The translations under genes and the position numbers were made by a program. Positions 1,921 to 9,550 of a stretch of DNA of 64,000 nucleotides are shown here, one piece after another. Every line of letters starts with the position of its first letter. Positions within the stretch are counted from its first letter, which is position 1. This stretch comes from an uncultured virus (IMG/VR IMGVR_UViG_3300027741_000049) (Duplodnaviria; Heunggongvirae; Uroviricota; Caudoviricetes): the IMG/VR virus record IMGVR_UViG_3300027741_000049, one strand, 5' to 3'. Below the pieces are notes generated by a model that worked only from the letters and a program-made list of their open reading frames with translations, searched no databases and was not told the DNA's origin.

Positions 1921-3081
1921 ATGCAATATGTAGAAATTAATGATCAAATATTAGGTCCTATAAAAGTTAGTTATTCTTTTCAGGAAGGGTTATATGTATC
2001 CTTGGAAAGCGCAATAGAAGATGCAATTTATACTATAATTTTTACTGATGCTGACAGCAATCAACAACTATATAAAGTAGATATTGATGGATATAGTTGG
2101 GCACACTGTAAAGTACTTTATTATGTAAATTGGAATGTTAAAATTTACTTTCAAGATAGAGTTGTGTGGGAACATACACTAGATTTATGTGGTAAAAAAA
2201 TAAGAATTGATATAGATAGCGGCTCGCTTGGTGACAGCTTGGGCTGGATGCCTTATGCAGAGGAATTTAGAAAAAAACATGGTTGCATAGTTTATGTATC
2301 TACATATAATTATGTATACAAACATTGTTTATTTAGTAATCAATATTATCCAAGCTTAATTTTTATTGATCCTAGTCAAGAACTAGAAGATATTTATATT
2401 ACGTATAAAATTGGAGCTTACTATAATAAAGCTAATACAGGACATAATCCTGCACATCATAAACATACGTTTATAGGAGTTCCACATCAACAAATTTGTA
2501 CAGATATTCTTGGTTTACCTTATAAAGAGATAAAACCTTTAGTAGATGAGCGACCTAGAACACCTAAAAAACAAGTTTGTATTAGCATTTTTAGTACGGC
2601 ACAAGCAAAATTTTGGAATAATGAAACTGGTTGGCAAGAGGTAGTAGACTACTTAAATAAACAGGGTTACGTAGTTAAACTATTGGGTAAAGAACCGGAC
2701 GAGTTCATGGGCAATAAAATACCCACAGGAGTTATTAGACCTTATTCTGTTGATAATTTTCAAACAGTAATAGATGAACTAAGAGATTCAGAACTTTTTA
2801 TTGGAATTGGTAGTGGAATAAGCTGGCTAGCTTGGGCATTAAATGTTCCACTAATTTTAATTAGTGGATTTAGTGAACCACGTACAGAAATGCAATCAAA
2901 TTGTATTAGAATAAAAGCTAGACACAATAGTTGTAGTGGTTGTTATAATAAACATCTATTTGATCGCGGTAACTGGTTATGGTGTCCAGAACATGAAAAT
3001 ACGTCAAGATGGTTTGAATGCAGTAGAAAAATAACAGGCAAAATGGTAATCAATAAAATTAAAACTCAACTAGGACTATAA
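1921..3081 (+). CDS. GT9-like glycosyltransferase, Aah/TibC autotransporter O-heptosyltransferase type
   Basis: SLGDSLGWMPYAEEFRKKH, STAQAKFWNN..GWQEVVDYL, FIGIGSGISWLAWA..VP.ILISGFS.P..E and C-terminal CxxC...WCP.H...FEC cysteine cluster. Confidence 0.85.
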   Translation: MQYVEINDQILGPIKVSYSFQEGLYVSLESAIEDAIYTIIFTDADSNQQLYKVDIDGYSWAHCKVLYYVNWNVKIYFQDRVVWEHTLDLCGKKIRIDIDSGSLGDSLGWMPYAEEFRKKHGCIVYVSTYNYVYKHCLFSNQYYPSLIFIDPSQELEDIYITYKIGAYYNKANTGHNPAHHKHTFIGVPHQQICTDILGLPYKEIKPLVDERPRTPKKQVCISIFSTAQAKFWNNETGWQEVVDYLNKQGYVVKLLGKEPDEFMGNKIPTGVIRPYSVDNFQTVIDELRDSELFIGIGSGISWLAWALNVPLILISGFSEPRTEMQSNCIRIKARHNSCSGCYNKHLFDRGNWLWCPEHENTSRWFECSRKITGKMVINKIKTQLGL

Positions 3082-3082
3082 T

Positions 3083-3352
3083 ATGCCGTGTATTAAATGC
3101 AGTAACGGTAAATACAAATACGGAGAAAAAGGTGACTGCATATTTGATACATTAGCCAAATGTAAAGCAGCAGCCGTTGCTATTCATATTCACGAACCTG
3201 GCCCTCACGGCCCAATTCCAGAAGGAAAAGACATGACACCAGTACAACCAGTACAACCAGTTCAACCTGCACTACCAATAAACCCATTTCATGATCCAAC
3301 TTGTCAGTGTACCGCCTGCAAAGGCATGTATCCTACATATCCAATGAAGTAA
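3083..3352 (+). CDS. small Cys/His/Pro-rich hypothetical protein
   Basis: 89 aa ORF with CxxC motifs and a PVQ x3 repeat. Confidence 0.6.
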   Translation: MPCIKCSNGKYKYGEKGDCIFDTLAKCKAAAVAIHIHEPGPHGPIPEGKDMTPVQPVQPVQPALPINPFHDPTCQCTACKGMYPTYPMK

Positions 3353-5834: not shown

Positions 5835-6353
5835 ATGGATCAAAGACAAAGACAAGGAATGCCTTTTGGGTTTCCTATGATTCCCTACATTGCTCCACCG
5901 CCTCCAGTAGTTCCGGGTTGGTGCCCACCACCGTTTCCAGAAGACGATGTATTTATTAATTATGCTCCAGGAAGTCTTCCAGGACCACCGGGCCCACCCG
6001 GACCCCAAGGCCCAGCAGGCCCCGAAGGCCCGCCAGGCCCGCTTGGACCACAGGGTCCCCCTGGGTCGTTGGCAAACTTGCCGGTTACCTTAGTAGATTC
6101 GGCAGCTTACCCAGCTACTAATACTGACTACTTTATTGGAGTAATTTTTAATGGCGCAACTACAATTACATTACCAGCTGGTACACTAGGCAAAATATTT
6201 ATTATCAAGGATAGTGTGGGCGACGCACTGACAAACCCAATTACTGTAGTTGCAACTGCTAGTACACTAGATGGTGCAGCAAACTACGTAATTGATTCGC
6301 CTTGGGGCTCCATTGGCCTTATATACAATGGAATTGAATGGAATGTAACATGA
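5835..6353 (+). CDS. collagen-like protein with C-terminal fibre-type beta domain
   Basis: About 10 G-X-Y triplets (GPP/GPQ) followed by TITLP...[16 protein letters not shown]...LDG...W domain. Confidence 0.75.
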
Positions 6354-6629: not shown

Positions 6630-6658
6630 TTGAAATTTGGTAATGATTGGGGTATAAT
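6630..6658 (+). promoter_or_regulatory. sigma70-type promoter
   Basis: TTGAAA-17 nt-TATAAT. Confidence 0.8.
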
Positions 6659-6693: not shown

Positions 6694-6909
6694 ATGCAAA
6701 AAACAAACCGCTTTGATTTTGAGCAACAAATGATGGATTGCTGGGGTGTAGTAGATGATATTAAAACCATCTACTATCTTGGCGACTTGCGTGATACAAC
6801 CGAAGACGAAATGCAGAATTTACTGCTAGGCTTGTTTACTATGTATCAAGTTAAGTTTGAAGTTTTGCAAAAAATGTTTGAAGATTTGATTTACAGCAAA
6901 CAATTGTAA
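6694..6909 (+). CDS. conserved small helical phage protein
   Basis: RFDFEQQMMDCWGVVDDI...NLLLGL..MY..KFE.L pattern. Confidence 0.65.
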   Translation: MQKTNRFDFEQQMMDCWGVVDDIKTIYYLGDLRDTTEDEMQNLLLGLFTMYQVKFEVLQKMFEDLIYSKQL

Positions 6910-6916
6910 ACGGGTA

Positions 6917-6951
6917 GCTACTTGGCAGTTCAATCCTGCCAAGGAGCACCA
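6917..6951 (+). ncRNA. tRNA minihelix-like element (acceptor plus T arm only)
   Basis: GCTACTTGGCAG-TTCAATC-CTGCCAAGGAGC-ACCA: 12-bp helix with one mismatch, T-loop, NCCA. Confidence 0.55.
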
Positions 6952-6982
6952 TACAAAAGCCTAGTTTATCTGGGCTTTTGTA

Positions 6983-7277
6983 TGGTTGTATGAAACAAGC
7001 CGAAAGGCGCGCTGGACGTGGGTTCGACTCCCACCTGGTCCACCAAAAACACATTAAGGCGATGCATAGCCGTGGTACGCGTTACCTCTGTAAGTGTGGT
7101 GTGCTTTTGATGGGCCAGTCATGGTTTCGACAGTGTGATAAGTATGTGAGTGGACAACTCGGTAGGCGATCTCCGCAAAAGAAGCAAACTATATAAATGC
7201 CAATGATGAGGTATTTGCCTTAGCTGCATAAGCTAATGCCGAGGTATGCCCCCGCCTTGTAACCAAGGGGGCTTTTT
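6983..7277 (+). ncRNA. ssrA: circularly permuted (two-piece) tmRNA; tag (A)ANDEVFALAA
   Basis: Piece with T arm and CCA end GGACGTGGGTTCGACTCCCACCTGGTCCACCA (ends 7045), hairpin intervening segment 7046-7111, then GGGCCAGTCATGGTTTCGAC at 7112 giving a G3-U70 pair; tag ORF 7199-7231; terminator hairpin 7247-7277. Confidence 0.93.
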
Positions 7278-7291
7278 ATTGGATAAATCTT

Positions 7292-7924
7292 ATGGCTAAC
7301 AGAAAACTTGATAGTGATGATTTTATGCTAGACACAGGTCTTAGCCGAGGATTTCGTAAATCTGGTTCTGCTATCTACGAGTTCTACCTAAGTGGAACTA
7401 TTACAGGACCTGAAGACTATATTGAGTGGTTTAACACTATTCGTAGTGCAGGACCACAAGACGAAGTAAAAATTTATATTAACAGCAGTGGTGGCGATTT
7501 AAATTGTGCACTACAATTTATGCGTGTGCTTAGTGAAACGCAAGCTACTGTTATTTGTAGTGTTGAAGGTAGTTGCATGAGTGCTGCTACAATGATCTTT
7601 TTATGTGCCGATGTATTTGAAGTTACTCCGCACAGTTTATTTATGTTTCACAACTACAGCGGCGGTATTTTTGGCAAAGGCGGCGAAATCTATGATCAAG
7701 CTGTTTTTGAACGTGAGTGGTCTAAACAGTTTTTACAGCACATCTACAAAAACTTTTTAACTAGCAAAGAAATTGACAGTTTACTAGAAAACAAAGACTT
7801 GTGGCTACACAGCGAAGAAGTAAGCAATCGTGTAGAAAAATTATGTGAAGCTAGAACTAAGGAACAAGAAGATGCTCGTAACGCCCTGTCAGGGGATTTG
7901 CAAGATGAATCCAACAACGAATAA
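7292..7924 (+). CDS. clpP: ClpP-like serine protease
   Basis: IYINSSGG, G.CMSAATMIF (catalytic Ser), FMFH (His), KDLWL. Confidence 0.85.
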   Translation: MANRKLDSDDFMLDTGLSRGFRKSGSAIYEFYLSGTITGPEDYIEWFNTIRSAGPQDEVKIYINSSGGDLNCALQFMRVLSETQATVICSVEGSCMSAATMIFLCADVFEVTPHSLFMFHNYSGGIFGKGGEIYDQAVFEREWSKQFLQHIYKNFLTSKEIDSLLENKDLWLHSEEVSNRVEKLCEARTKEQEDARNALSGDLQDESNNE

Positions 7925-9233: not shown

Positions 9234-9310
9234 GGGCCTATAGCTCAGTTGGTTAGAGCAGTCGACTCATAATCGATTGGTCACAGGTTCGAGTCCTGTT
9301 GGGCCCACCA
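9234..9310 (+). tRNA. tRNA(CAT), probably Ile2 (lysidine type)
   Basis: GGGCCTA acceptor, GTCGA-CTCATAA-TCGAT arm resembling bacterial tRNA-Ile2, ACCA end. Confidence 0.88.
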
Positions 9311-9313
9311 TAT

Positions 9314-9389
9314 CTGCCTATAGCTCAGTGGATAGAGCAACAGCCTTCTAAGCTGTTGGTCAAAGGTTCGATTCCTTTTAGGCAGGCCA
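9314..9389 (+). tRNA. tRNA-Arg(TCT)
   Basis: Cloverleaf, ACAGC-CTTCTAA-GCTGT, GCCA end. Confidence 0.92.
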
Positions 9390-9395
9390 AATAAT

Positions 9396-9470
9396 TCCCT
9401 AGTAGCTCAGCGGTAGAGCAGCAGACTGTTAATCTGTTGGTCCGTGGTTCGATCCCACGCTAGGGAGCCA
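9396..9470 (+). tRNA. tRNA-Asn(GTT)
   Basis: TCCCTAG/CTAGGGA acceptor, GCAGA-CTGTTAA-TCTGT, GCCA end. Confidence 0.93.
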
Positions 9471-9476
9471 AAATGT

Positions 9477-9550
9477 TGGGATATAGTGTAATGGCAACAC
9501 CACGGATTTTGATTCCGTTATTCTAGGTTCAAATCCTAGTATCCCTGCCA
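9477..9550 (+). tRNA. tRNA-Gln(TTG)
   Basis: U1-U72 mismatch, ACGGA-TTTTGAT-TCCGT, GCCA end. Confidence 0.9.

Follow-up and report, generated by a model that had tools for sequence, protein, structure and literature searches.

Genomic context of the locus

The element under study lies between a small open reading frame and a tmRNA gene in the window, by which is meant the whole 64-kb stretch of viral DNA that was analysed. The features of the locus are as follows, in window coordinates.

6630..6658, plus strand: sigma-70-like promoter, TTGAAA-17 nt-TATAAT, a consensus match only (11 of 12 consensus positions)
6694..6909, plus strand: small ORF of 71 aa, with its stop codon 7 nt before the minihelix
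6917..6951, plus strand: acceptor/T-arm minihelix of 35 nt ending in ACCA, from the fold and the alignment with relatives
6917-6923 and 6941-6947, plus strand: 5' and 3' acceptor strands of the minihelix
6924-6928 with 6936-6940, plus strand: T-stem of the minihelix
6929-6935, plus strand: 7-nt T-loop of the minihelix, TTCAATC
6948 and 6949-6951, plus strand: 3' end of the minihelix, discriminator A and CCA
6949..6985, plus strand: 16-bp stem with loop 6965-6969, in which the minihelix CCA pairs with UGG at the 5' boundary of the tmRNA
6984..7045, plus strand: tmRNA acceptor piece (T-arm, 3' acceptor strand, ACCA) from RF04321, with CCA at 7043-7045
7046..7111, plus strand: tmRNA intervening segment, predicted to be removed from the precursor, an unaligned insert in both Rfam models
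7112..7290, plus strand: tmRNA coding piece, from ARAGORN and from Rfam alignments reaching 7231 and 7290, its 3' end being approximate
7199-7231, plus strand: tmRNA tag frame, ANDEVFALAA
7255-7268, plus strand: terminator-like hairpin in the tmRNA coding piece, from a terminator scan
7292..7924, plus strand: ClpP-like ATP-dependent protease gene (PF00574, E 1.7e-10; phrog_1827, E 2e-62)
9234-9550: tRNA array Met-(Arg)-(Ser)-Asn-Gln/Trp of four to five tRNAs, compared with 10 relatives

No other promoter-like sequence than the one at 6630-6658 lies on the plus strand ahead of the small ORF, the minihelix and the tmRNA. The small ORF matched 0 Pfam and 0 PHROG families, and is kept in relatives at 88-97% nucleotide identity. 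The tmRNA is encoded by a circularly permuted two-piece gene, called as 'tmRNA*' with the tag ANDEVFALAA by ARAGORN and matched above the gathering cut-offs by both RF04321 (tmRNA_permuted, 6984-7231, 131.6 bits against 47) and RF01850 (beta_tmRNA, 128.4 bits against 84). Its acceptor piece comes first, the tag frame is present, the 5' acceptor strand at 7112-7118 pairs with 7035-7041, and a G3-U70 pair (G7114 with U7039) can be read from the sequence. The intervening segment is hypervariable in length, with ARAGORN gene lengths ranging from 308 to 457 nt in close relatives and with 23 or 151 other letters standing in its place in metatranscriptome contigs of relatives.

The tmRNA, with a tag that ends in ALAA, is immediately followed by the ClpP-like gene, and the same order was seen in the close relatives examined, which suggests a phage-borne tagging-and-degradation pair. 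Further upstream (5835-6353) is an ORF with a collagen-like Gly-X-Y repeat and weak matches to phage tail-fibre families. The DNA runs containing this stretch are labelled as freshwater or lake water metagenomes, one of which could be the sample it came from, and the element that hosts the locus is a freshwater-lake phage of roughly 100 kb.

Structure of the minihelix

The sequence at 6917-6951 folds as a 7+5 bp helix with 11 of 12 pairs formed and A6920-G6944 as the sole mismatch (ViennaRNA), at -17 kcal/mol with a z-score of -4.7, and none of 200 shuffles folded as well. The original prediction, of a 35-nt minihelix of 7+5 bp with one A-G mismatch, a TTCAATC loop and a terminal ACCA, was thus borne out by the sequence and its fold. 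It had further described the element as lacking a D and an anticodon arm, which agrees with the finding that no tRNA was called at 6917-6951 by ARAGORN (six tRNAs and the tmRNA were called in the window) and that RF00005 gave no match there, neither above its gathering score nor with E allowed to reach 10. When both strands were scanned for the geometry (7+5 bp helix, 7-nt loop, NCCA, at least 11 of 12 pairs), this was the only such site in the 64-kb window; 200 dinucleotide shuffles gave a mean of 0.375 sites per window with no loop motif required, and 0 of 200 had a site when a TTCRA loop was required.

The minihelix is not a canonical tRNA gene, as it does not form a cloverleaf with D and anticodon arms. 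It does have the geometry of an RNase P model substrate, namely 12 stacked pairs (11 of 12 formed), a UUCRA T-loop and a discriminator followed by CCA. Aminoacylation or an alanine-type identity was considered and rejected on sequence, no G3-U70 pair being present in any of the reduced alleles described below; the U3-G70 pair of one of them (L012) has the reverse orientation.

Origin by internal deletion of a tRNA gene

Relatives of the locus were collected with the protease as query, which gave 392 candidate stretches in viral contigs, 390 of them encoding a relative, of which the best 80 were retained, and by pattern scans with the conserved tmRNA start, which added 10 viral, 24 metagenome and 23 viral loci, many of them on duplicate contigs. 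The close group comprises 15 distinct upstream haplotypes, the window included, all of which share the tag ANDEVFALAA except L102, whose locus ends early. The nearest virus record compared (G001) is without this locus.

A complete tRNA-Thr(UGU) (ARAGORN tgt) occupies the minihelix slot in 12 of the 15 haplotypes. Eight of these (L001, L003, L005, L006, L007, L010, L015 and L016) are eight of the 12 loci in one ARAGORN scan, and the remaining four (L095, L100, L102 and L105) come from another; in four of the 12 carriers (L003, L006, L016 and L095) a tRNA-Tyr stands behind the tRNA-Thr. The full tRNA begins 7 nt after the same ORF stop codon as does the minihelix, which is found in the other three haplotypes (the window, L012 with its duplicates L088 and L109, and L002 with its duplicate L081). 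All three minihelix forms align to both ends of the tRNA-Thr gene, and to its flanks, with a single gap of 39 columns (alignment A1). Since both ends align around one 39-nt gap at the same position, the minihelix is an internally deleted tRNA-Thr gene, and it can be stated with high confidence that a single 39-nt deletion removed the D arm, anticodon arm and variable loop of tRNA-Thr(UGU). The exact breakpoints can be shifted by a few bases, with removal of positions ~8-48 or 4-44 equally parsimonious. The reverse order, in which a minihelix came first and a full tRNA arose by insertion, was rejected as unparsimonious given the complete slot tRNAs in 12 of 15 haplotypes and in other lineages.

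These results establish the precise deletion remnant of a tRNA that was one of several possibilities raised at the outset. Alignment with relatives, proposed as a means of telling a conserved minihelix from a full tRNA at the same position, gave a mixed answer: the full tRNA is indeed carried by close relatives, but the minihelix is not absent from them and recurs in three diverged haplotypes. Further reduced alleles were not found in viral contigs by exact-pattern scans with the window minihelix and the L092 hairpin (described below), and a scan of viral contigs with the T-arm pattern of the minihelix returned the contig of L012 only.

The decoding function of the tRNA-Thr is dispensable, because the genome of L002, which is complete (99,362 bp, direct terminal repeats, CheckV 100%), has no tRNA-Thr match among its five tRNA hits. 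Four of these are typed as Met, Arg, Asn and Trp, and the fifth, 89 nt long, is inferred not to be a Thr tRNA.

On one account the minihelix would have no function and be a tRNA pseudogene that a chance deletion left behind. It would persist only because the event is recent and because its CCA, being part of the adjoining stem, shields the bases next to it from deletion, and any processing of it would be without consequence. That all three alleles share one deletion junction fits such an account, and its probability, weighed below against the remaining evidence, falls somewhat short of an even chance.

A conserved stem between the tRNA slot and the tmRNA

Immediately downstream of the minihelix, 16 bp form from C6949:G6985 around a 5-nt loop (-24.7 kcal/mol, z-score -8.6), and the 70-nt fold extends this by a 17th pair, A6948:U6986, so that the whole ACCA is sequestered, as had been predicted for a hairpin at 6948-6986. 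The hairpin was also expected to abut the tmRNA, and it does; the correction required is that the tmRNA is permuted and in two pieces, so the hairpin meets the 5' end of the acceptor piece. The Rfam tmRNA match begins at 6984, so G6984-G6985 are at once the last bases of the hairpin and the first of the tmRNA model.

This CCA:UGG stem is not restricted to the window. When the sequence before the conserved tmRNA start was compared across 33 distinct contexts, 26 had the stem with at least 13 of 14 pairs, and in each of these the left arm starts exactly at a CCA and the right arm stops at the GG before the tmRNA (further examples are at L001:2602-2693 and L092:595-705). Fifteen distinct stems occur among the 26, and eight of the 14 positions have at least two Watson-Crick pair types; positions 1-5 are invariant (CCAUA:UAUGG) and positions 6-9 and 11-14 covary. 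The interior consists of a 5-nt loop in stems of the window type and of unrelated inserts of 50-80 nt in others, for which no Rfam family was found in the loci of seven relatives. The sequence directly before the CCA of the stem is distributed as follows.

18 of 26 contexts: tRNA called by ARAGORN
3 of 26 contexts: tRNA-Thr relic (window, L012, L002)
2 of 26 contexts: uncalled tRNA-like sequence with a long arm (L064, L094)
2 of 26 contexts: unknown segment ending in a 5-bp hairpin and ACCA (L006, L095)
1 of 26 contexts: tRNA-Cys relic (L092)

The long-arm sequence of L064 and L094 ends in GCCA, covers ~90 nt before the stem (L106:536-623) and was not recognised by ARAGORN; among Rfam families tRNA-Sec matches it best, at 32.4 bits, short of the cut-off of 47. 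The segment in L006 (2462-2538, also in L095) is ~75-77 nt long and lies between two successive CCA:UGG stems; the 77-nt segment of L006 before the last stem folds no better than its shuffles (z-score 0.54).

The stem was not found in seven of the 33 contexts. L098 has no sequence upstream of the tmRNA start; L091, L097 and L119 have a promoter-like sequence of their own close upstream of the tmRNA and no tRNA-like element; and in L011, L117 and L136, likewise without a tRNA-like element, something else (e.g. an ORF) directly precedes the tmRNA. Since the last six lack one, maturation of the tmRNA does not in general need a tRNA-like element, and the existence of several such relatives is in keeping with a non-functional remnant in the window. 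A wider, ARAGORN-based survey of all fetched loci gave 37 distinct permuted-tmRNA contexts, comprising 16 with the stem and a called tRNA, 17 without the stem, and four with the stem and no called tRNA (the L012 and L002 contigs, L064 and L092). Overall, the CCA:UGG stem is a robust conserved feature of the locus and is better supported than any role of the minihelix. A processing signal defining the 5' end of the tmRNA had been among the functions first proposed for the minihelix; the conserved, covarying element at that end is the hairpin rather than the minihelix, which could serve as an RNase P handle.

The stem of the window has an A-run in its left arm and a U-run in its right arm, followed by UUGUAUG, and so resembles an intrinsic terminator, such that the hairpin and minihelix together might serve the small ORF as a terminator of transcription or as an insulator. 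Against this, the hairpin was not called by the terminator scan, and in L093 and L111 the A-run and U-run are fully swapped between the arms, placing the A-run on the right, with pairing intact, which indicates selection on the stem and not on a U-tail. Moreover, termination at the hairpin would silence the tmRNA, because no promoter-like site lies between the two. An intrinsic terminator at 6949-6985 was rejected on the scan result and the non-conserved U-run, and the broader terminator or insulator reading is very improbable.

Reduction of a second slot tRNA and clean losses elsewhere

In a more distant lineage the slot before the tmRNA is occupied by a different tRNA, tRNA-Cys, in L041 and L103. 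In L092 (identical to L104, the two being different metagenome records) the same slot holds a helix of 12 bp that has a single bulge, is closed by a tetraloop and ends in UCCA, and this hairpin shares with tRNA-Cys the 5' strand, the start of the D-arm and the 3' strand. As judged from these shared segments, the L092 hairpin is an independent reduction of the slot tRNA to the same geometry.

The fate of tRNA genes elsewhere in these genomes is different. In the downstream array of the window and 10 relatives, the presence or absence of tRNA-Arg, tRNA-Ser and tRNA-Val and the exchange of tRNA-Gln for tRNA-Trp leave spacers of 3-7 nt, and no tRNA remnants were found in the array spacers of these same loci. 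A single long spacer was noted, of 106 nt in L003 between tRNA-Met (2869-2945) and tRNA-Arg (3052-3127), which has the look of a tRNA not called by ARAGORN, with a CCA end and a long variable arm. The tRNA-Tyr behind the tRNA-Thr has also been gained or lost cleanly among close haplotypes; because it goes cleanly, any rule would apply to the final CCA-ended helix ahead of the stem, which would be kept, and not to every tRNA. The reduction of tRNA-Cys, together with the remnant-free losses elsewhere, favours a constraint on this slot. Both observations also count against a purely non-functional relic, for which a random fragment would be expected at the slot rather than, for a second time, a clean 12-bp helix with NCCA.

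Maintenance or decay of the reduced alleles

The known relic alleles number three, from a single deletion event, and evidence on whether they are kept or decaying points both ways. They differ at five stem sites, with pairing kept at 11 of 12 positions in the window, 11 of 12 in L012 and 11 of 11 in L002. Pair 3-70 is C-G in the full tRNA, U-G in L012 and U-A in the two other alleles. Pair 4-69, C-G in the full tRNA and L012, is A-G in the window and A-U in L002; it has therefore changed on both sides, from C-G via A-G to A-U, which counts against simple decay. In a helix-maintenance simulation restricted to the five substitutions that certainly followed the deletion, which is the fair test, P was 0.046, 0.094 and 0.17 at transition biases of 1, 2 and 4, respectively. 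Maintenance of the helix through base changes is therefore suggestive and not significant, as a non-functional relic would have it (P 0.05-0.17 overall). Including three earlier changes lowered P to 0.009 or 0.0006, but these values depend on a guessed ancestor and were not relied upon, as the changes may predate the deletion and have arisen in a working tRNA.

The two other alleles have each been altered further. In L012 pair 1-72 no longer forms, and the T-loop of L002 is shorter by 5 nt, the latter allele folding as an 11-bp tetraloop hairpin; both changes can be read as continued decay. Between the window and L012, 3 of 35 minihelix bases differ compared with 6 of 216 in the adjacent ORF, and the full tRNA-Thr is identical in at least five haplotypes (L001, L005, L007, L102 and L105), such that the relic drifts faster than its neighbouring ORF and far faster than the intact tRNA, again as expected of a pseudogene. 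In the opposite direction, the relic allele is found on three different flanking backgrounds, which are mosaic: the window is nearest to L012 in the ORF (97.2%) and to L001, a carrier of the full tRNA-Thr, in the tmRNA (97.0%), and the L002 ORF, at 90.7% to the window, is no closer than the ORFs of full-tRNA haplotypes.

The same alleles bear on the suggestion, made in the original prediction, of an anticodon-less decoy. Toxins that target tRNA acceptor ends exist, and an abundant CCA-ended minihelix might soak up a host acceptor-end factor, such as a CCA-acting defence toxin, or escape anticodon nucleases. The geometry is compatible with this, the helix being an intact acceptor-type helix with a discriminator and CCA. 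The source is nevertheless an ordinary tRNA that is intact in most relatives, the sequence is not conserved across the three alleles (as the broken 1-72 pair of L012 and the lost T-loop of L002 show), the CCA is paired in the 16-bp precursor stem, and no defence, anti-defence or nuclease genes were seen among the seven adjoining ORFs examined. The decoy idea thus found no support and is highly unlikely.

A possible role in processing of the tmRNA precursor

Without an anticodon arm the minihelix cannot decode, but it is inferred to keep those parts that are read by tRNA-end-processing enzymes, namely a 12-bp acceptor/T helix, a T-loop and RCCA, and its CCA continues to pair in the conserved stem, which joins the 3' end of the upstream tRNA to the start of the tmRNA. 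A retained processing role and a neutral relic are about equally likely, each at a little under even chances. The reading preferred here, to which an even chance is given, combines the origin by deletion with a retained role, in that the element is a deletion relic of tRNA-Thr which survives as a minimal 'punctuation' signal and not as a tRNA.

Under the preferred reading, the promoter at 6630-6658 would give rise to a single precursor containing the ORF, the minihelix and the tmRNA. RNase P would cut 5' of G6917, as for the full tRNA, and so detach the mRNA; an endonuclease would open the CCA:UGG stem, freeing the tmRNA acceptor piece near 6984; and a second RNase P cut would fall at G7112. 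The 35-nt piece would be a by-product. As the CCA is locked in the stem of the precursor, recognition by RNase P should be weaker until the stem is opened.

Contigs from RNA libraries held parts of the locus in relatives. The locus was matched by 24 runs, four of which are RNA, with small word shares, and no contig over 6924-6950 was found in these four lake metatranscriptome runs, the contigs being those of relatives only. One contig from an RNA library (X23) runs from the ORF into the full tRNA-Thr of a relative and another (X24) from a long-insert stem into the tmRNA, a contig being in neither case proof of a transcript.

The feasibility of such processing, and that alone, is supported by the literature on RNase P and t-elements. 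Bacterial RNase P cleaves synthetic hairpins consisting of an acceptor stem, T-stem and T-loop (McClain, Guerrier-Takada and Altman 1987, as described in PMC11143913), which are reported to be efficient substrates, and the enzyme also processes pre-tmRNA, 4.5S RNA and the phage M3 and C4 RNAs (PMC11143913). In plant mitochondria, tRNA-like t-elements are described as processing signals for mRNA ends (PMC1920247).

A more general proposal, put forward tentatively and with less confidence than the readings above, is that an upstream acceptor-type helix with NCCA is needed when a two-piece tmRNA is co-transcribed with the preceding gene. A dispensable tRNA in that position may then be whittled down to a minimal substrate for RNase P and 3'-end processing, that is, a bacteriophage 't-element', with at least two origins (from tRNA-Thr in the window, L012 and L002, and from tRNA-Cys in L092), and the stem would be the second half of the module, fixing where the tmRNA acceptor piece begins.

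Comparison with known systems

In its derivation from a bona fide tRNA by deletion, and in occupying a variable slot, the minihelix resembles the truncated tRNA genes, or pseudogenes, of phage tRNA clusters. It differs from ordinary truncated tRNA genes in that exactly the two middle arms are gone, leaving a continuous acceptor/T helix with an encoded CCA, and from the ordinary, remnant-free losses in the same genomes in that a second slot tRNA shrank to the same geometry.

With its 12-bp helix, T-loop and 3' RCCA, the minihelix is comparable to the synthetic hairpins of McClain and colleagues as summarised in PMC11143913, but those are laboratory constructs that were cleaved, whereas the minihelix is natural, is a candidate substrate, and has its CCA paired in the precursor. 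A parallel can likewise be drawn with the t-elements of plant mitochondria (Forner et al. 2007, PMC1920247), which are non-decoding, tRNA-like pieces between polycistronic genes with proposed cuts by RNase P and RNase Z. The t-elements have mapped transcript ends and are mostly non-canonical cloverleaves, whereas the minihelix is a bare helix in a bacterial or phage system, before a tmRNA.

Phage-borne two-piece tmRNAs are known, mostly from aquatic settings (PMC9004378), and the OM43 phage Melnitz is similarly an aquatic phage with a permuted ssrA gene. The Melnitz tmRNA is described there as riboswitch-controlled, whereas at the present locus the tmRNA follows a tRNA or its relic by way of a covarying CCA:UGG stem and is itself followed by a ClpP-like gene; neither a stem of the CCA:UGG type nor a minihelix is mentioned for Melnitz in the sections of PMC9004378 consulted. 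Full-text literature searches likewise gave, among the papers listed, no account in phages of either a naturally occurring minihelix or a CCA:tmRNA stem.

Implications

What appeared to be a stand-alone mini-tRNA thus gains a documented origin as a tRNA gene caught in the course of shrinking, while sister phages keep it intact. Should the relic be doing no more than decaying, there is nothing unusual in the finding. Should it instead be kept because it directs RNase P, the laboratory minihelix substrates would have a counterpart in nature, and organelle tRNA punctuation and t-elements a bacterial or phage parallel; it would also show how a phage releases a two-piece tmRNA from an mRNA-tRNA-tmRNA precursor. 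The origin by deletion is in itself ordinary, and what deserves attention is that reduction to a minihelix has recurred and that the stem between tRNA and tmRNA covaries.
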